Positions 2,713-15,745 of a stretch of DNA of 64,000 nt are shown here, one piece after another (position 1 is the first letter of the stretch; every line of letters starts with the position of its first letter). The stretch comes from an uncultured Candidatus Micrarchaeota archaeon. Lineage in GTDB: Archaea; Micrarchaeota; Micrarchaeia; Micrarchaeales; Micrarchaeaceae. The DNA lies in NCBI GenBank assembly GCA_963741095.1, contig CAVUGN010000005.1, positions 128,001 to 192,000 on the forward strand. The letters run 5' to 3'. The position numbers were made by a program, and so were the translations under genes. The notes under the pieces were generated by a model that saw nothing but the letters and a program-made list of their open reading frames with translations, was not told the origin of the DNA and searched no databases.

Positions 2713-3123
2713 TCAGTTGAACTTATTTCTTTGCGACCATGCGTATATTGCGAAAATAATGACGATTGCTGTCCCTAGGATTATGGCAAAGACCTGCTTG
2801 AAAGAGTTGGTCGGATAAAAACCCGTTAGGATAAGAAGAATTCGCCCGAGAACATCGATGCCAAGAAGTATCATGGCAAGCACTAATTCTCGCTTCTTCA
2901 TTGTCAGAATGAGCAATCCACTGACCACGTAAGAAACGCCGATTGTGACAGATGCATAAGTGGCCACCGCCGTGGTGCTGGTAGAAACTACACTCAAAAA
3001 GTTTCCTGTGAATCCCGTTGTGATCTCAGCAAGACCAAAGAGGATCATAAGCACTGCGACTATTGTAATTCCCTTATGGCGTATCCTATTTTTCGCGTTC
3101 TCACTTGAGATACTCGTAAACAT
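2713..3123 (-). CDS. Small 4-TM membrane protein
   Basis: Four hydrophobic segments. The start at 3123 minimises overlap with the RelE-like gene. Confidence 0.6.
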   Translation of the reverse strand: MFTSISSENAKNRIRHKGITIVAVLMILFGLAEITTGFTGNFLSVVSTSTTAVATYASVTIGVSYVVSGLLILTMKKRELVLAMILLGIDVLGRILLILTGFYPTNSFKQVFAIILGTAIVIIFAIYAWSQRNKFN

Positions 3124-3355
3124 CTTCACGACTTTTAAACATGAGTAATAGAAGTTTGTCTTCTTTTTCCATAATCTGGTAAACAAGACGTTTGTTTTCG
3201 ATACGGATAGAGAACACCTCTTTTAGATGGTGCAGTTGTTTCCCTTTTTTGCCAGAATGCGCAATCTCCGATATTATTTCACCAAGTCTCTGTTTTTCCT
3301 TAGCGGTGAGCTTTTTTATATCCTTGTCAAATTCGCCGGTCTTTTCTACGTCCAT
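3101..3355 (-). CDS. relE: Type II toxin, RelE/ParE family
   Basis: 84 aa. F.KDIKKL...GKQL...FSIRI..KRLVY...REDVY pattern. Lies directly downstream of the antitoxin gene. Confidence 0.75.
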   Translation of the reverse strand: MDVEKTGEFDKDIKKLTAKEKQRLGEIISEIAHSGKKGKQLHHLKEVFSIRIENKRLVYQIMEKEDKLLLLMFKSREDVYEYLK

Positions 3356-3359
3356 GCAC

Positions 3360-3596
3360 TCAGGCGTATTGTTTTAGGATGTATTTGCTAGTCTTTTCCC
3401 TTCCAGAACGAATTTCACTTAACATTTTCTGTGTCGCCTTCTCGTAAAGTTCATCTTCGGTGAGTTTGTGAATTTGGTCGAACTCGAAAAGGGCAAGCCG
3501 TATCGCCTCTGTCTTGGTTTTGGCATAGCCATCCGCAAGCATTTTTTCTATCACTTCTGAAACGTAACCGCTCAGTTCTATGTTTATGTTACTCAC
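3360..3596 (-). CDS. Ribbon-helix-helix antitoxin (CopG/ParD-like)
   Basis: INIEL beta strand, then IEKMLADGYAKTKTEAIRLAL RHH helices. Lies 4 bp upstream of the toxin gene. Confidence 0.7.
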   Translation of the reverse strand: MSNINIELSGYVSEVIEKMLADGYAKTKTEAIRLALFEFDQIHKLTEDELYEKATQKMLSEIRSGREKTSKYILKQYA

Positions 3597-3643
3597 GATA
3601 TCACTTATAAGAATATTATAATGAAATATTATAAATATCTTTC

Positions 3644-3718
3644 TGCTCCCATCGGGATTTGAACCCGAGTTTTAAGGTTGAAAGCCTCATATCCTTGGCC
3701 AGGCTAGATGATGGGAGC
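3644..3718 (-). tRNA. tRNA-Glu(TTC)
   Basis: Reverse complement GCTCCCA..TAGCCTGGCCAAGGATATGAGG-CTTTCAA-CCTTA..GGTTCAAATCC..TGGGAGC-A folds as a cloverleaf with anticodon TTC. No encoded CCA. Confidence 0.95.
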
Positions 3719-3725
3719 CATTTGT

Positions 3726-4181
3726 TCAGAGCCATACGTTGTTGCAAAGCATTATTCCGTAGGTCGCGTAATTCACCATGTCCATTATGGTGTCTTCGAC
3801 CTTCTCATCCAAGACCAGCGCGGTGTTGCCCTCCTTGAGCAGGTTGACCGCCCTTGAGATCTTGTCGTTCAGCCGCACTATCAGGCCGACGACGCCGTAC
3901 TTGAGTATGTTGACCGAGCCGTAGTCCCTGTTCTTGGCTATGCCTATCTTGTATGAGGCGTCCAGCACGTCCTTGACCTCGTGCTTGTACCTGGTGCTCA
4001 GCAGCGAGAGGGCGCCGTTCCTGACACCGTAGAAGACCGCCGCGTTGTCCTTCGCGGGCTTGGTCCCGGCCATTATCTCCTTGAAGTACTTCTGCAGTGC
4101 GGCCTCTGCCTCCGCCAGCGTGTAGCCGTCCTTCGCGTCGACGCCGTCGTACAGAAACCTCTTGAAATTCTCGTCCCACAT
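3726..4181 (-). CDS. DUF1599 / nucleotide-modification-associated domain (Nmad1-like) protein
   Basis: KNRDYG...RLNDKISR...EKVEDTIMDMVNY motif set characteristic of DUF1599. Confidence 0.8.
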   Translation of the reverse strand: MWDENFKRFLYDGVDAKDGYTLAEAEAALQKYFKEIMAGTKPAKDNAAVFYGVRNGALSLLSTRYKHEVKDVLDASYKIGIAKNRDYGSVNILKYGVVGLIVRLNDKISRAVNLLKEGNTALVLDEKVEDTIMDMVNYATYGIMLCNNVWL

Positions 4182-4244
4182 GCTACCGATTATCTCTTAG
4201 GCAGAAAGGTATAAAGTGCTTGTTGTAAAAGTTTCTGTGATAAC

Positions 4245-4784
4245 ATGATACTATCTGACGTCGACCTGATGGATGCGATCAAGAACAAGCGATTGGTGCT
4301 CACGCCCTTCTCCGCTGACACGGTACGGGAGAACGGGATAGACCTCAGGCTGGCCGATGAGATAGCCAGGCACGACGGGACAGGCAAGGATTTCGTGATG
4401 GACCCGACCGACGACAGCAGCATAACAAAGTGCTACAGGATAGAGAAGAATCTTGGCACGATGGTGCTGAAGCCCGGGGAGCACGTCCTGCTTTCGACGC
4501 ACGAGTACATGGAGATGCCTGACGATCTTGTTGGATTCATAGAATTGAGGAGCACTTGGGCGAGGCACGGGCTGTCACTGCCGCCCACGATCATAGACGC
4601 CGGCTTCAAGGGCACGGTCACGCTTGCAGTCTCCAACAACGCCTCTTACAGCATTGCGCTGAAGCCGCAGCAGAGGTTCGCCCACATTGTCTTCGTGAAG
4701 ACGAGCAGCAAGGTCAAGAAGCCTTATGCCGGAGGGTACTTCGAACAGAGAGGGATCAAGATACCGAAGGCAGTGAAGGGCTGA
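4245..4784 (+). CDS. dcd: dCTP deaminase
   Basis: MILSD, GIDLRL, RSTWARHGL, IDAGFKG, YAGGY..Q.G motifs. Confidence 0.92.
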   Translation: MILSDVDLMDAIKNKRLVLTPFSADTVRENGIDLRLADEIARHDGTGKDFVMDPTDDSSITKCYRIEKNLGTMVLKPGEHVLLSTHEYMEMPDDLVGFIELRSTWARHGLSLPPTIIDAGFKGTVTLAVSNNASYSIALKPQQRFAHIVFVKTSSKVKKPYAGGYFEQRGIKIPKAVKG

Positions 4785-9483: not shown

Positions 9484-9679
9484 TCAAACACCGTTGTCGC
9501 CAGCCAGCCCCGTCGGATGACCAGACACTGTATGTATGGTTTTCTATGTTTAAAATTGTTTCTTTTCGCTTCTTTGACCGTCATGATCGCCCTTTCCGTA
9601 CCGCATTTTACTATCTTCATCCGAGATATTTATGCATTTCGTCTCGAAATCGCCGCCGAAATGGGGTATTAAAAGCCTT

Positions 9680-9688
9680 GTCTGGTCA
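9680..9688 (+). repeat. Target-site duplication, left copy (GTCTGGTCA)
   Basis: An identical 9-mer lies at 15224-15232, abutting the right TIR. Confidence 0.9.
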
Positions 9689-9728
9689 GGTTCTGGTAAA
9701 TCTTAGGGTGGTAATTGACGGCTGGTAA
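9689..9728 (+). repeat. Left terminal inverted repeat (40 bp)
   Basis: GGTTCTGGTAAATCTTAGGGTGGTAATTGACGGCTGGTAA, the exact reverse complement of 15184-15223. Confidence 0.95.
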
Positions 9729-9738
9729 GCATCGGCTA

Positions 9739-12308
9739 TTACCAACTGTTCTCTTCGACGAGTTTTATCTGGTCTCGGTCTAACCCATAGAGCTTGTATA
9801 TCAGCTTATTTACCTCGTCTTTCATAGTCTCGCCATGATGAGAACTGCCCTTTGTTTCGATAATCTCTTTTACAAGCCTTACAACCTTGTCGTATTCTGG
9901 CTTGCCCTGATACTCGCATAGTGGTATCTTTGCCATATGGTATTTGTCGAACCGCATGGTTCTAATTGCTTTGGCATAAATGAATCTATACGCATACCAG
10001 TTAATCAGCTTTGAGTTGAGCAGGGCTACAACAAATTCGGGAGCTATCCCATCAAGGAATATGTTGCCTACGTTGTCTAAAGTTATCAGCCCCTTATCAT
10101 CTATCGTAGCCATCAGGATAATATGGTCTTTCGGATTCAATACATGGGCTACGATATTCTGAACAACCACCTTGGGCTTTTCTGTATATTGAACGGCCTT
10201 CTTTATCTCGTTGTAGTCAGATTTCGTTATGAAGTCCGTAACTTCCTTAATCTCGTATCTGCCTATGGATTTACCCCTCAGTATCGGTATTTCACCCGTT
10301 TCTTTTAGGTAGCTCTGTATAATCGCTCCCCTCTCTATGTTGGCGACTTTGGATAAGAACTCTCCCGTATTCAGAAGTTTTAGCCCTAATTTCAGTTCGT
10401 CCTCTGTAACGTCGTTTATGAAGTTCCCGAAAACGTCCACGAGCTTCTTGTCCACCGCTATCGGCTTTCTCTTTTCATCCAAGAACTCAATATGATACTG
10501 CTTGGCATTAGACCCTTTTTTCAAGATGATGATTACCTGTTCCAATAGAACGTCCTTGAAGGCTTTGCTTACGTCAACCAGCTTAATCAGGTCGTTCTTG
10601 ATTAGAAGCCTTGCACTAATCCATTTCTGGCTGTATATCAGGGGCTTAGGCACTATGAAACCCAAATATCCGTCCTTGTCCAACAGCAGATACGCCCTGT
10701 TAATGAACGCTATCGCAGTATCGGTATTGTTCTTGGTGGCTGGATAGTTCTTTAGCATATATTCTCTTTCGCTTGTATTAAGTTCAGCACCATACGGCGG
10801 ATTCCCTATTACTATGTTGAAGGACTTGACGTTTAATTCTTCGAGCCAATTATCCCAGTCAAAAGATTCTTTCGAGAGTTCCCTATCGTTTATTAGGCTG
10901 TTCCCAACCCTTACGTTATTTTTTAGTTCTGGCAATAGCGTAGTGTGGTCTGTTATCGTCTTTTGTTTCGTAGAGCCGAGTATCTTAAGGTAGATATTGA
11001 GTTTTGCTATTGATACTGCCCGTTCGTCTAAGTCCACGCCATAGATATTGTTCTTGATAAGTTCAAGTCTCTTAGAAGGCGAGAGCTGGCTGTAATTCTT
11101 AACCCTGTCATAATAGAACTTGTCGAACTCGGAGACTACTTTTATCAGGAAAGAACCCGAACCGCAAGCAGGGTCTAATACTTTGATTTTAGGTATGAAA
11201 TTATTTCGCCCCCCCTTTATACCATGTAATTCTTTTGCTATTGTATTCTCAACGATATAATCCACTATCGGCTTGGGTGTGTAGTATATCCCTTGCTCTT
11301 TTCGTGTTGACTTTCCGCCTATGAGTTTTCTGCCCTTTTGAATGTAGGCGAGATAGTTTTCGTAGATATTTCCCAGCACATCCACGTCTATCGCCGCAAA
11401 GTTGTATTCTATGTGCTCGCTCGGTTTCGATATACTGTCCAAAAGTTCTCGTATGACCTTATCAGGTATATCTATCGTCTCAAGTTCGGGTCTGCTGTCG
11501 GAAGCCCAAATATGTCAGTATCGTATTTCTGTCTGTATTTGGCAAAGACCACCTTACTGTTGTGTATATTTCCTTGTCGTCGTTTCGGTATATCTGCTCT
11601 AAAATTCTCTTTTCTCACTCTTCGGCCTCGACCTTTTTTATGAAGATTATCCTGTTTATTAACCCCTGTGTTAGCTCCTCTATTTGCTCTGGCGTTTTGT
11701 CTTTGGCTTCTGCTTGGAGAGACTGCTTATCTTTTCCCTGAATTTGTTTATGCTGTTAGCCAAGTCTGTGGTTATGTCTATTTGTTGAATCTTGTAATTG
11801 CTGACTTTCGCATATTTGTCCAAAGAGCCATCGAGTATGTTCTGGGCGTTGAGCAGTTGTAGCTTGTCCACCGAATAGGACAGATTCCCCGAAAGAAGGT
11901 CTATATTGCAGAACGGGTATATGCTATCCCTTGTTACATACCATCCTCGTATCCTTTTAAAGTCTGTTAGAATCGCCCAATTAACCGCCTTGCTGTAAGC
12001 ATAATCTTGAACCTGCTTATCGTATTTTCCGTTAGCAAGGTTCGCATCGCTCTTAAGTTTCTTTGCCTCAACTATCACTTTCGGGACGGGTTTAGGATAG
12101 CTGTAATCGGCACGTTTTATACTGCCTCTGTGTCTATTGGATTCTGTCTGTCTATCATGGGTTCCTCCCATTCCAAAACCTCTTTGAGTATCCTGTCAAC
12201 TAATTTAGAACGAGTATCGTCTTCGGATAGCGTATCATCCGAGTAGTCCTTCTTGTATGCGTCTATTATTTTGTTGAGCCTTAAGATAATTTCGTCCTTG
12301 TCTATCAT
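9739..12308 (-). pseudogene. Type IIG (Eco57I-like) fused restriction endonuclease / N6-adenine methyltransferase; frameshifted as assembled
   Basis: The pieces 12117-12308, 11680-12171 and 9739-11442 join into one protein. It has an N-terminal nuclease (DTR..RADY..VEAKK..QVQDY..AILTD), INRIIFIK, GIYYTP, DPACGSGSFL, IGNPPY and a TaqI-C-like target recognition domain. Confidence 0.85.
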
Positions 12309-12333
12309 AATTACAGTAGGAACTGATACTCTT

Positions 12334-13464
12334 TTAAGAGTTTATCTCAGGCTGTTCTGAAAGGGACTTTACAAGCAAGTCCCTCCAGTTCCCGCTCTCG
12401 TGTATCCCCGAAGCCTTAGCTGGCGTAGTTCCTAATGCCCCGTGAGGCTTGACAAAGTTGTAGTAGGTTTTGAAGTTCTTTGTAAAGTTCTCTGTTCCAG
12501 TATCCGTCTTAAAGCTCTTCATTACCTTGTCCCTCTGTCTGAACGTCCCGTGATACCTTTCCAGCTTGTTATTATTGCTCATTCCTTGCTTTAGGCTAAC
12601 GTAACGCTGGTGAGGATGCCTATTTGTGTAAGTCCAAAACTCATGCGTTATCGCCTTATTGTATGCGAAAGCCCCATCAGTAATTACAGTCTTGGCTTTG
12701 CTGTTAGCCGTCCGCTTTGCATCCTTGAATAGAGTCTGTGCGTCCTCTGTCGTCCTTGTCGGGCTGACATGGTTAGCGAGCAGAAAACGGGTATCGCTAT
12801 CGAGGCAGTTCCATACCCACTTATGCGAACCTTTTGTGATACATCTGCTCGTCAGCGTGCCATGTATCGCTAACGGCTGGGTGGTATTGCTTGACATACT
12901 GGTTTATTTTGTAAATGTATGCGGCCGCCGATTTCATTACTGAAACATGGGTTACCTTCAAGCTCATGAATTGCTTTAGGCTGTCCGCTATCGAGCGGTA
13001 GCTTACCCCCTTCATATATAAGTCCATAGCCATAACAACAGCGTCCAAGTCGCTCTTGATTTTCTGCAGAGGCTCTAATACGAACCTTGTTGCAGTTTAG
13101 GCATAGCCACCTCTGTTTCTTGCCCATAGTGGTCTTTCTTGTTCCGTCCTTTTGCAGTTTTGTAGAATTACAGTGAGGGCATGGCTGGTTTATGCTCGCT
13201 ATCTGATGTATCTCTGACGCCTTGACTTTGGCAGTAAGGTAGAACTTCAAGAGTATGATATGCTTGCAGAGATTACCTCTATGTTGTCCTCACAGTCGCA
13301 TACGCAAAAGCCGTTAGATTCTGTTCTACTTTGTGTTTTAACCCCTTAACGTTCTGTGATGGTATCCAATAAATCCCCTGTCCGTCCGATGCAGGCTTGA
13401 TACCTTCTTGTGCCATCTTTAGGCTTCTTTCCTTCCTCAATTCGTATGGTGTTTTATTCGTCAT
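12334..13464 (-). pseudogene. Transposase: SWIM finger + InsA-like Zn ribbon + HTH + IS6-type DDE core; frameshifted as assembled
   Basis: Read across frames: CDCEDN..CKH (SWIM), CPHC..KDG..QRWLCLNC, GVSYRSIAD (HTH), WHADE, VITDG, NNKLERYH and YYNFVKPHGAL. Confidence 0.85.
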
Positions 13465-13575
13465 ATAACCATCTTACTTGTATAGTATATTATTGTATGA
13501 GTATATATAAATACCTTTCGGGTAAGATACGATACCTTTATATACCTTAACCTAATATATTATAATGGTAATATT

Positions 13576-13716
13576 ATGGGTCTCGTAGAACTAAAAGTAA
13601 AGGGATATAGATGCGAGCGGTGCGGGCATGAGTGGGTTCCTAAAGGTTCAGAAGAACGACGAGTTTGCCCTAAGTGCAAAAGCCCTTACTGGAACAAACC
13701 AAGAAAGAAAAAGTAG
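13576..13716 (+). CDS. 46-aa zinc-finger micro-protein (not in the ORF track)
   Basis: MGLVELKVKGYRCERCGHEWVPKGSEERRVCPKCKSPYWNKPRKKK, with CxxCxHxW...CPxC. A TTTATATA box lies upstream. Confidence 0.8.
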   Translation: MGLVELKVKGYRCERCGHEWVPKGSEERRVCPKCKSPYWNKPRKKK

Positions 13717-13741
13717 GAATTATTACTTTATTACACACATA

Positions 13742-13769
13742 ATTACAAAAAGCTATATAGATTTGTAAT
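13742..13769. promoter_or_regulatory. Inverted repeat straddling a TATA-like box upstream of the RHH gene (candidate autoregulatory operator)
   Basis: ATTACAAA...CTATATAG...TTTGTAAT, about 30 bp upstream of ATG 13798. Confidence 0.5.
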
Positions 13770-13797
13770 AATTTTATAATCAAGAAAGGTAATAATT

Positions 13798-13944
13798 ATG
13801 ACAAAAAAAGAGACTGTGAGTATCAGGATGGACGCAGGAGTATGGAAAGAGGTAAAGATGCTTGCCGTTGAAAAAGATATGAAAATAAGCGACCTCGTAG
13901 AGACCTTACTTCTTAACTCTATTAAGCAGTTGAAAGGGAGGTAG
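13798..13944 (+). CDS. 48-aa ribbon-helix-helix regulator (not in the ORF track)
   Basis: MTKKETVSIRMDAGVWKEVKMLAVEKDMKISDLVETLL, a classic RHH pattern. Confidence 0.8.
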   Translation: MTKKETVSIRMDAGVWKEVKMLAVEKDMKISDLVETLLLNSIKQLKGR

Positions 13945-13986
13945 CCTTTTATACTTTGCTAACCATAACCTCAGCGGTAGGTCTCT

Positions 13987-15166
13987 ATGGAAAATGTAGA
14001 ATGGAAGTATCAGGATGGTGAGTCGCTGGCTCACATAAGTGAATTAACAGTAAATTCTAAGACAGTCTTATCGCCATTCCACTCAACAACGACAAGAGAG
14101 GATGCAACATACCTATCTGTTGTGGGGTCAAATAGGAGGGAACCTTCGATAAACATATCGGCAGAGTCCCTTAGTAAGACCACATTGGACCAAATAGGTC
14201 AGAGCATAGAATCTGCAAACGCTCTAATGGGTAGGTTGAACGAAAGGAAATCGCAATCGCACAAGGACATAAACCTGATTTATCCACGCATACCAAAGAA
14301 GTATGAGATAAAGAACGGACAGAAAAAGCAGTATAACTTTATCCCAAGAATAGACAACCTTCAGATTACTACGCTGGTAGATGTAGAACTTCAGTGTAAT
14401 GCTGATGCAATAATACCCGATACCGAGTTCCATAACGGAATTCGATCACTTCAAAGAGATATTGAGCAGAACCAACAGCCAAATTCAAACATTTAGCAAA
14501 AACAAGCCGATGATGGGATACATACCCAATATTGACGACAGGGCATTAGTAATAAAGATGATACAGGAATATCTGAAAAAGGATTATGATTGTAGGATAT
14601 TTGGCGTGGACTTTAGCGGTGCTTCTAACGCCCCGCTCCTTATTTCGACTGTCGTTGGAACAATTAGGGACGAATTGAAGATAAAAAAGAACAAAGAGAA
14701 CAACGAGAATTATTACCTTCATGTCTTTAACGCCTCAACAGCCAAAAAGTCAGAAAAGGATATATCCCCGATAAGCAACTTGCTTACCCAGCTCTACGGC
14801 GTGGACTCGGCGAGCGGGACTATCTGGGGCGGAGCGGGCGATAACCCACAGCCAGAGAATTCAAGATACATAGTTACTGAGGACTATGGTGCTTACAAGA
14901 AAAAGGCCATACACAAGATAACCTGCAAGTGCTATGTATGCTCTCACTATTCCCTTGACGAGATATATGACTCAGCCAACTACTTACAAAGGCTAAAGGT
15001 GCATACAGTATCAAAATATAGGACAGAATACACAGAGATAGGAGAGAAGATAAAGAACGACAAAGACCCGCTTGTGCCTTATGTCAATACCAAAGCCCAA
15101 ACCAAAACCGATGTTAGAAAGATAATGAACGACGTAAATGAGATTAAGGCGAGGACATCGGGGTAA
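13987..15166 (+). CDS. Divergent TGT (tRNA/DNA-guanine transglycosylase)-fold protein, with one frameshift near 14416
   Basis: N-terminal DGESLAHISEL...VLSP resembles TGT DG.AR.G.L...TP. Also LHVF, GVDS and a C-terminal CKCYVC...LKVH zinc site. No DSGG motif. Confidence 0.65.
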
Positions 15167-15183
15167 AATAAGACCGCCCCGAT

Positions 15184-15223
15184 TTACCAGCCGTCAATTA
15201 CCACCCTAAGATTTACCAGAACC
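15184..15223 (-). repeat. Right terminal inverted repeat (40 bp)
   Basis: TTACCAGCCGTCAATTACCACCCTAAGATTTACCAGAACC. Confidence 0.95.
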
Positions 15224-15232
15224 GTCTGGTCA
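15224..15232 (+). repeat. Target-site duplication, right copy (GTCTGGTCA)
   Basis: Identical to 9680-9688. It contains the stop codon of the 15230-15745 gene. Confidence 0.9.
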
Positions 15233-15745
15233 CTTCCGGATCACGCCCAGATTGCCCTCTTTTTCGACGTCAATCTTGGACCCTATTCCCCACGCGAATC
15301 CGATGAACATGGCGTTCTCCTTGTTCTGTATCCTGTGGCCGTTGTTTGCCGTTTCCTTTATCTCTTCGAGCTTGTTGACCAGGAGATCGACCGTGGCCTT
15401 GCTCGTCATTAACTCGATGGATTCCTGCGTTCCTGCCGTTTTTATGGCATAGAGGAAATCTGCGATATTGAAGGGCGTGCGCAACATCAGCGGATACAGG
15501 ACATGCGCGGCCTTTATCACATCGGGATTGCATGCCGTGTTTTGCATGTCCAGCACCTTTGCGGCCTGTATGTAGTCCAGGTTGAACCCCGTCGCCTGTT
15601 TCGGAACCACCTCTTTTATGCAGGAAAGGATATCCTTGCCGTTTGTCGCCTCCACCAGATCACCGTGCCACCCTCTATTTTTCGAGATATTTATGCCTAT
15701 GGTTGGATGACACTTGACGTACCCATGTTCGTCAAACGTTGCCAC
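15230..15745 (-). CDS. Hypothetical protein
   Basis: 171-aa ORF overlapping the thrC stop. Its own stop codon lies inside the TSD. Confidence 0.55.
   Translation of the reverse strand: MATFDEHGYVKCHPTIGINISKNRGWHGDLVEATNGKDILSCIKEVVPKQATGFNLDYIQAAKVLDMQNTACNPDVIKAAHVLYPLMLRTPFNIADFLYAIKTAGTQESIELMTSKATVDLLVNKLEEIKETANNGHRIQNKENAMFIGFAWGIGSKIDVEKEGNLGVIRK

Follow-up and report, generated by a model that had tools for sequence, protein, structure and literature searches.

Low-GC DNA bounded by long inverted repeats in the genome of an uncultured Candidatus Micrarchaeota archaeon (assembly GCA_963741095.1) raises the question of whether the genes it encloses move as one unit and, if so, by means of which type of transposase. 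The DNA in question lies between positions 9,680 and 15,232 of a 64,000-nt stretch of contig CAVUGN010000005.1 (positions 128,001 to 192,000; the whole stretch is referred to below as the window, and its numbering is used throughout). An earlier note had described it as a complete cargo transposon. Our analysis leads us to conclude, with a probability of about 80%, that the 5,535-bp segment is a unit transposon, that is, one with a single transposase gene, which carries cargo and belongs to an archaeal family related to the IS6 insertion sequences (IS).

The segment is delimited by two terminal inverted repeats (TIRs) that are complementary at 40 of 40 positions (Table 1). Each arm is directly abutted on its outer side by the 9-bp word GTCTGGTCA, of which the window holds no third copy. 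Both the TIRs and this target-site duplication (TSD) had been claimed in the earlier note, and they are as described there; so are the order of the genes inside and the close fit of the outermost open reading frames (ORFs), which stop at 9739, 10 bp from the left arm (9728), and at 15166, 17 bp from the right arm (15184). When the 20-nt terminal word was searched for with up to three mismatches, the two TIRs were the only matches in the window, against 0 expected from 100 shuffles. In the whole 1.08-Mb genome (11 contigs) the 40-mer occurs twice, and neither DNA nor protein searches of this genome found further copies or solo ends; the element is thus single-copy. GC content is about 0.42 inside and about 0.55 outside. 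The insertion point is in intergenic DNA just past the stop codon of a 171-aa gene: the last three bases of the right GTCTGGTCA copy form this stop codon, on the minus strand, the left copy being located some 200 bp upstream of a gene for an NAD-dependent epimerase.

The target site is itself one arm of a 10-bp inverted repeat of the host (TGACCAGACA at 9518-9527 and TGTCTGGTCA at 9679-9688, about 150 bp apart). The reverse complement of the 9-mer is found nowhere else in the window, and the repeat could be due to chance or mark a host regulatory site. The target also includes TGGTCA, which resembles the hexamer iterated in the ends of the element (see below).

To classify the transposase, we compared it with 63 relatives, retrieved from 296 candidates (the longer proteins). 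Most are 360-410 aa long and unnamed; two carry NCBI names, one of these being "IS6 family transposase". One relative, P0001, is 97% identical to the in-frame C-terminal part of the window protein. In an alignment of 38 of the 63, three sets of residues are invariant: C56, C58, C67 and H69 of a SWIM zinc finger; C96, C99, C122 and C125 of a Zn ribbon; and the DDE triad D206, D265 and E304. The SWIM model (PF04434) is matched above its gathering threshold in three of six relatives, P0001 scoring 18.0 versus 19.6 and two giving no match; in the window the signature, CxCxnCxH, can be read across two frames. The Zn ribbon is of the IS1/IS1595 type (NF050000, 35.7 versus 28 bits). As for the catalytic domain, the window sequence gives 48.7 bits with DDE_Tnp_IS240 (threshold 27), and the IS6 model NF033587 is matched with 126-137 bits in four of the six relatives (P0001, 126.3) for a cut-off of 125, the window fragments scoring 61.8 and 35.1 bits. 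The IS1 transposase model is not reached (48-77 bits versus a cut-off of 100) and NF033588 (ISC774 type) is matched weakly, with 30 bits. Domain scans and alignment thus support the claim of a unit transposon whose one transposase is of the IS6 DDE type and bears a SWIM finger. The mixture of IS6 and IS1 traits that had also been proposed holds in part: an IS1/IS1595-type Zn ribbon is present inside the transposase, whereas the 46-aa Zn-ribbon protein encoded next to it gave no InsA match in the domain scan.

A profile search of 1.84 billion representative sequences retrieved at least 806 proteins at E <= 1e-30, and 3,925 when the limit was relaxed to 1e-10; a subset of the matches, about 285 aa long, begin at the Zn ribbon and lack the SWIM finger. 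The hosts include Woese-/Nanoarchaeota, Micrarchaeota, Aenigmatarchaeota, Bathyarchaeia, Thermoplasmata, Hadarchaeota, Nitrososphaerota and Halobacteria. Within the phylum of the host, 301 genomes were sampled, and 21 of them, counting that of the window, have the transposase (E <= 1e-30), generally in one copy. The best match in a search of plasmids is a 340-aa clostridial "IS6 family transposase" (33% identity over residues 134-357), and IS26 and IS6100 are 25-28% identical to the transposase (tblastn). One patch of the window protein, at about 12905-12935 and over the word GCGGCCGC, shows five amino acid differences from P0001 in ten codons (MKSAAAYIYK versus MNWVAAYMDK), the rest being 97% identical; a local sequence error and a recombination patch are both possible.

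The earlier note had also called for a search for siblings with different cargo, and such siblings exist. Relatives of the transposase were located on genome contigs (171 of 242 candidates) and on metagenome contigs (at least 352 of 598), and 80 loci were kept from each collection. Inverted-repeat candidates bracketing the transposase gene (1,203 in total) were tested for an exact direct repeat of 8 or 9 bp at their ends. As many as 40 of the 160 loci have inverted repeats with such a TSD; removal of seven duplicates between the two collections leaves 33 unique elements. When the test was shifted outward by 70, 100, 150 and 200 nt, positive loci numbered 2, 1, 0 and 0, respectively. Controls at 12, 20 and 30 nt (1, 3 and 10 loci) detect inner sub-alignments of the long ends and were unusable, hence the choice of larger shifts. 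The 33 siblings range from 2,059 to 8,333 bp, with inverted repeats 40-51 bp long. All of them contain extra ORFs and none is a bare IS.

The duplication measures 9 bp in the window element and in eight of the unique elements, and 8 bp in the other 25. To place the two groups, a tree of 37 sequences was made. It comprises four bacterial IS6 transposases, P0002, P0001 as a proxy for the window protein, and the transposases of 31 siblings, all except L015 and L034, whose ORFs are truncated. The tree was obtained by a quick method, with several long branches flagged. In it, the seven 9-bp rows form one clade (SH-like approximate likelihood ratio test, 100) nested among the 8-bp rows. The length given in the earlier note is thus real, but the 9-bp duplication characterizes a single clade surrounded by 8-bp elements. 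The nearest outgroup is the long clostridial IS6 transposase, with IS26, IS6100 and the Priestia sequence lying beyond a long branch.

The ends of the siblings are alike. Their consensus is GGTTCTG in the 8-bp elements (50 ends) and GGTATTG in the 9-bp elements (18 ends), the window element having GGTTCTG. In the 9-bp clade and in L053 the hexamer found at position 6 is repeated at 21 and 35; many others have one further copy, at about 33-41. Its sequence varies between elements (TGGTAA, TGGTCA, TGTCGC, TGTAAC, TGTTGC and others) while the spacing is kept, so that the copies co-vary.

What lies between the ends changes from one element to the next. In 12 of 12 related pairs, DNA likeness is limited to the transposase gene with about 150 bp upstream and to the terminal 50-64 bp or so, the exception being one pair that also shares a methylase stretch (63% identity). 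L130 and L133 have identical ends at different target sites. The pairs thus share transposase and ends and differ in cargo. A scan of the cargo covered 46 of 90 ORFs in one set and 83 of 87 in another. It did not include the transposase genes, a number of small ORFs, an antisense artefact in L073, or any ORF of L066, L073, L077 and L078 in their initial delimitation. DNA methylase or restriction-modification (R-M) genes were found in 10 of 34 elements (the window element, L015, L034, L053, L112, L119, L130, L133, L146 and L166). In addition, L034 has a DUF4411 gene and an RmrA-like M78/HTH gene, and L023 a full-length PDC-S33 candidate defence gene (E 4e-117); L064, whose TSD has one mismatch and which is not counted here, carries SspD-like and ParB-like genes. 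The remaining cargo is mostly without family assignment. These counts, together with relatives that are widespread and mostly unannotated, confirm the idea of an under-described archaeal family with varying, often defence-type cargo.

One gene that the earlier note had counted as cargo does not belong there. Among 153 unique loci, 38 encode a homologue of the 46-aa Zn-ribbon protein, and in every one of these 38 its gene directly precedes that of the transposase, on the other strand. Because all of the matches share this divergent geometry, the gene is a conserved partner of the transposase. In some other elements the same slot is occupied by a MazE/AbrB-like or a ribbon-helix-helix (RHH) gene. 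The 46-aa protein is probably a regulator or an accessory DNA-binding protein. Between the two divergent starts the word TTTATATA is present on both strands (13537 on the plus strand, 13504-13511 on the minus strand), 32 and 40 bp upstream of the two ATG codons; the pair presumably represents back-to-back archaeal TATA boxes. Altogether, sequence comparison indicates a backbone made of the 40-bp ends, the transposase of about 378 aa and the divergent Zn-ribbon gene, the remainder being exchangeable cargo.

Table 1. The transposon and its immediate borders (positions in the window; aa, amino acids; HTH, helix-turn-helix; TGT, tRNA-guanine transglycosylase)
Feature	Position	Strand	Remarks
Left TSD, GTCTGGTCA	9680-9688		Word unique apart from the copy at 15224
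Left TIR	9689-9728	+	Starts GGTTCTG; hexamer TGGTAA at positions 6, 21 and 35
Probable Type IIG R-M gene: nuclease, N6-adenine methylase (NPPY), TaqI_C target-recognition domain	9739-12308	-	Several frames; intact relatives 852-858 aa
Transposase: SWIM finger, IS1/IS1595-type Zn ribbon, HTH, IS6-type DDE	12334-13464	-	Four frame changes; intact relative P0001, 378 aa
AT-rich divergent control region	13465-13575		Putative promoters
46-aa Zn-ribbon protein, CxxC...CxxC	13576-13716	+	Divergent partner of transposase
48-aa RHH protein, CopG-like	13798-13944	+	Weak CopG_antitoxin match; pairs with next gene
TGT-fold protein, CxCxxC...H zinc site	13987-15166	+	One frameshift near 14417; intact relatives 390-404 aa
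Right TIR	15184-15223	-	40/40 complementary to left TIR
Right TSD, GTCTGGTCA	15224-15232		Includes stop codon of 171-aa gene

The cargo of the window element is divided between its two sides, with a probable Type IIG R-M gene to the left and the RHH and TGT-fold genes to the right. The first assignment, made with some reserve for a gene that is read in several frames, agrees with that made previously: the R-M gene matches the Pfam families Eco57I, N6_Mtase and TaqI_C and, over a 567-aa part, the PADLOC model REase_MTase_IIG (E 8e-46), the N-terminal piece giving a weak match to MmeI_N (21 bits versus 27). Its relative P0245 (858 aa) is 91% identical, and the intact relatives span all the pieces present in the window. 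The other four proteins of the element (transposase, Zn ribbon, RHH and TGT fold) drew no PADLOC match.

The second cargo arm is more peculiar. The TGT-like gene, of about 393 codons, appears split by its frameshift into parts of 169 and 234 aa; the intact homologues are unnamed and devoid of Pfam domains. C314, C316, C319 and H340 are invariant in 26 aligned sequences (out of 32 matches). An AlphaFold model was obtained with a pLDDT (mean per-residue confidence) of 84.3, and in a Foldseek search of the PDB all 50 matches listed (ranks 1-50 with gaps) are TGTs, the best with E 8e-10, TMq 0.62 and identities of 8-16%. A profile match to the archaeal enzyme ArcTGT (1iq8) covers the zinc region (E 2e-5). 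Judging from the model, the protein has a true TGT fold. The designation "TGT-like" is thus upheld at the level of the fold and not by sequence families, since the Pfam scan returned no match, PF01702 included, and TgtA was matched only weakly (24 bits versus 350). TGT superfamily enzymes exchange bases on DNA or RNA, and the modelled protein may be considered a candidate, and no more, for a role in defence. A DpdA-like, preQ0-dependent activity was envisaged and set aside as speculation; the host offers no support for it, a PF01702 search of the 94%-complete assembly having revealed no canonical TGT, with controls positive in 14 of 14 cases. In the ESM Atlas the protein has only unnamed archaeal clusters as neighbours, one TGT-bearing cluster at 0.84 providing a lead.

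The TGT-fold gene is rare, being present in 2 of 301 genomes of the phylum. The second genome (G232) has kept the RHH and TGT-fold pair, at 62% and 64% identity, in a locus (L182, G232:C52, 7790-11523) where it adjoins an N6_N4 methylase gene and the gene for a 425-aa transposase of a different type (DDE_Tnp_1, IS4/IS5-type). Because the pair is retained beside a different transposase, its sequence context argues that it is a mobile module in its own right. Over 73 aa the N-terminus of the DDE_Tnp_1 transposase matches, with 36% identity, the SWIM region of the IS6-like transposases, and a SWIM N-terminus and a cargo module thus appear to be shared between unrelated transposases. In a bog metagenome (run X5, see below), the contig covering 13661-14021 (the end of the Zn-ribbon gene, the RHH gene and the start of the TGT-like gene) has a depth of 77, compared to 11 for the contig carrying the R-M and transposase genes; this module seems common to more elements than the present backbone.

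As the earlier note had implied by speaking of a "repaired" transposase, three genes of the window element are frameshifted: four frame changes affect the transposase gene, at least four the R-M gene and one the TGT-like gene (around 14417). We envisaged that the transposon could be real but dead, with about ten genuine frameshifts, a decaying relic unable to move or to restrict. Its single copy in the genome fits such a view, as do the frame breaks seen in the window sequence itself. Public sequencing runs were inspected for independent copies of the sequence. None contained more than 20% of the sampled window words, and contigs were compared from four of the ten runs listed. Run X5 yielded a 3,917-bp contig aligned to 9705-13604 with 310 other letters (about 8% divergence) and 12 gaps, in which the arrangement of R-M and transposase genes is kept. 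The gaps listed are extra bases in the contig after 11225, 11236, 11499, 11562, 11723, 12124, 12831, 12841, 13085 (2 nt), 13281 and 13318. They cover every frame change inferred in the R-M gene (bases missing after 12124, 11723, 11562 and 11499) and in the transposase gene (after 13318, 13281, 13085, 12841 and 12831), and most of them lengthen short base runs. A second X5 contig joins the same right TIR (15178-15223) to a different flank, and therefore the element is present at another site elsewhere.

Run X1, from soil, has contigs that agree, without a single differing letter, with the flanks, with inner pieces and with the right junction (15161-15372), which identifies the same strain with the insertion. 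One of its contigs (11384-11556, depth 3.8) has an extra G after 11499 that restores the frame. This is the only site at which a same-strain contig contradicts the window, and the depth is low, which leaves the relic some room. Against it, all the listed differences in the three broken genes are deletions of 1-2 nt in the window, mostly in short base runs; the in-frame stretches are still 97-99% identical to intact proteins (for the TGT-like gene, to P0064) even though the bog contig differs by about 8% at the DNA level, whereas decay with so many indels should have brought many more amino acid changes; and the TIRs (80 nt) and TSDs (18 nt) are unchanged. A dead relic is unlikely on these grounds. 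Because about ten small deletions, all in one direction, come with few amino acid changes, we infer that the frameshifts are most likely errors of the assembly consensus rather than decay. If so, the element is probably intact and was recently active. Long-ORF cover calculated in a sliding manner across the genome places the element at the 13th percentile; it is not singled out, and this measure gives no proof of local errors.

Two other interpretations fare worse. Archaeal plasmids and viruses often carry R-M genes and small Zn-ribbon and RHH genes, and the segment might be a fragment of such a replicon, integrated by means of a DDE enzyme. Yet domain scans showed no replication, capsid or conjugation genes inside the element (nor a resolvase gene), none of the IMG/VR candidates proved related to the transposase (0 of 28) or to the TGT-fold gene (0 of 88), and elements of the family can be as small as 2.06 kb; we consider this origin highly improbable. 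Least credible is an ordinary IS6 compound or pseudo-compound transposon, or a pair of independent insertions whose cargo has not moved as a unit, since, even though canonical IS6 elements move cargo as paired IS copies (Varani 2021, accessible part), here a single transposase gene and two end copies are found in the whole genome, perfect inverted repeats are bracketed by one 9-bp duplication, and 33 relatives show the same single-transposase layout with the cargo within the TSD.

Several points weigh against our conclusion that the segment is an IS6-related unit transposon that has been active in its host. The IS6 assignment is borderline with NF033587, two of the six relatives remaining below the cut-off at 115.6 and 98.2 bits. 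The empty site, ...AAAAGCCTT-GTCTGGTCA-CTTCCGGA... with one GTCTGGTCA, was sought and not found: in the DNA of 40 relatives there are only flank pieces of 64-72% identity, on different contigs and without conserved synteny, and none of the contigs from the four runs joins across the element, a 220-nt contig ending at 9680 being uninformative on this matter. The same-strain contig covers one of about ten frameshift sites, the other sites being judged by a relative with 92% identity. The element is in single copy here and its transposase is low-copy in the phylum, so that activity in this host is at best presumptive. Finally, the chemistry of transposition and the roles of the SWIM finger and of the small Zn-ribbon protein are putative.

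With this proviso, transposition could proceed as follows. Transposase protomers would bind the terminal and sub-terminal hexamers through the Zn ribbon and HTH, possibly with the help of the SWIM finger. The bound proteins would then pair the ends and attack the target with a stagger of 9 bp (8 bp in the sister clades). Judging by family membership, the reaction would most likely be replicative, in the manner of IS6, producing a cointegrate to be resolved by host recombination. The small Zn-ribbon protein might regulate the divergent promoters or assist in end binding.

How does this family relate to known ones? IS1 elements usually generate 9-bp TSDs, and IS1595 has tIS members. To these points of likeness is added the N-terminal Zn ribbon inside the transposase; the IS6-like ends and the sub-threshold score with the IS1 model set the present family apart. 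Tn3 family transposons have a single transposase, TIRs of about 38 bp and internal cargo; they form replicative cointegrates and 5-bp TSDs and have a resolvase with a res site. The window element departs from Tn3 in its unrelated transposase, in the length of its TSD and in the absence of a resolvase. The archaeal IS6 elements of ISfinder include the ISH14, ISC774 and ISPfu1 types. Likeness to the IS6/IS26 family is seen in the catalytic domain (DDE_Tnp_IS240, NF033587), in ends with GG at positions 1-2 and G at position 7, which is the IS6 TIR pattern (Harmer & Hall 2019), and in the 8-bp TSD of 25 of 33 relatives, a hallmark from which the 9-bp TSD of the window departs. (Statements citing this and the following papers hold for the accessible parts of their texts.) Canonical IS6 elements are 0.7-0.9 kb long, reaching 1.76 kb at most, with 14-bp inverted repeats, a transposase of about 235 aa, 8-bp repeats and no cargo (Varani 2021). 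In contrast, the window element measures 5,535 bp and has a transposase of about 380 aa with SWIM finger and Zn ribbon, and the family has iterated ends of 40-50 bp and constant cargo. Longer IS6 clades are described in the same review, among them clade h with a zinc finger, and ISDsp3 is the sole passenger-carrying member, with one passenger gene (Varani 2021). The long clostridial IS6 elements with a zinc finger are the nearest catalogued type; they are bacterial, whereas the present family is archaeal with varied, systematic cargo. The term SWIM has 0 occurrences in the accessible part of that review.

Some of the archaeal IS6 clades are short, at 700-750 bp (Varani 2021), and the 37 archaeal members in ISfinder have the signature E--F---K-R (Harmer & Hall 2019). 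The family described here reads IERxHGTFRQR instead, with H at +3 and R at +7, and is nearer to the bacterial pattern. In conclusion, the family is IS6-related and yet misses two hallmarks of IS6, namely size and content and, in the clade of the window, the 8-bp duplication. Its additions are the SWIM finger, the multi-site ends and the systematic cargo. R-M units within inverted repeats and TSDs are on record in bacteria, e.g. with 65-bp repeats and an 8-bp TSD (Furuta, Abe & Kobayashi 2010); in the present case the unit includes a dedicated transposase family, and no archaeal case was retained in the accessible part of that study. A 2019 survey of archaeal mobile elements (Krupovic et al.) treats passenger-carrying DNA transposons, in the part available, as bacterial and undetected in archaea, and the corresponding part of a 2026 survey of archaeal IS contains no SWIM or passenger terms. 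The family is undescribed in the literature searched for SWIM, IS6 and archaea and for DPANN or archaeal cargo transposons, a search that had ISfinder, TnCentral and supplements outside its scope.

Two features of the window lie apart from the transposon. A low-GC patch (2713-3718, about 0.42-0.44) contains an ORF for a ParE-like toxin (3101-3355, minus strand) and a 78-aa upstream partner (3360-3596) beside a tRNA-Glu gene (3644-3718); the whole resembles a small toxin-antitoxin islet located at a tRNA gene. Next to it, at 3726-4784, two ORFs face each other, one with DUF1599 ("nucleotide modification associated domain 1"; 3726-4181, minus strand) and the other dCTP-deaminase-like (4245-4784); they may form a nucleotide-modification pair.

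A broader proposition, which we advance tentatively and rather doubt as a whole, is that the window element typifies a widespread class of archaeal unit transposons, invariably loaded with cargo and defined by a transposase with SWIM finger, Zn ribbon and IS6-type DDE domain, by multi-site ends of 40-50 bp and by a small divergent DNA-binding partner; that this class is a main vehicle of R-M and other defence genes among DPANN and other archaea, that one of its clades has shifted its target stagger from 8 to 9 bp, and that the RHH and TGT-fold pair is a new mobile base-exchange module for defence or counter-defence. Whatever the fate of this proposition, a single family provides 34 cleanly delimited archaeal elements with exchangeable cargo, against none in archaea in the 2019 survey. 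These elements offer a concrete route by which R-M and other defence genes could pass horizontally into DPANN archaea, whose genomes are very small. The natural pair of 8-bp and 9-bp clades constitutes a system for learning what sets the target stagger of a DDE transposase, and the iterated, co-varying end sites constitute one for studying end recognition by SWIM and Zn-ribbon domains.

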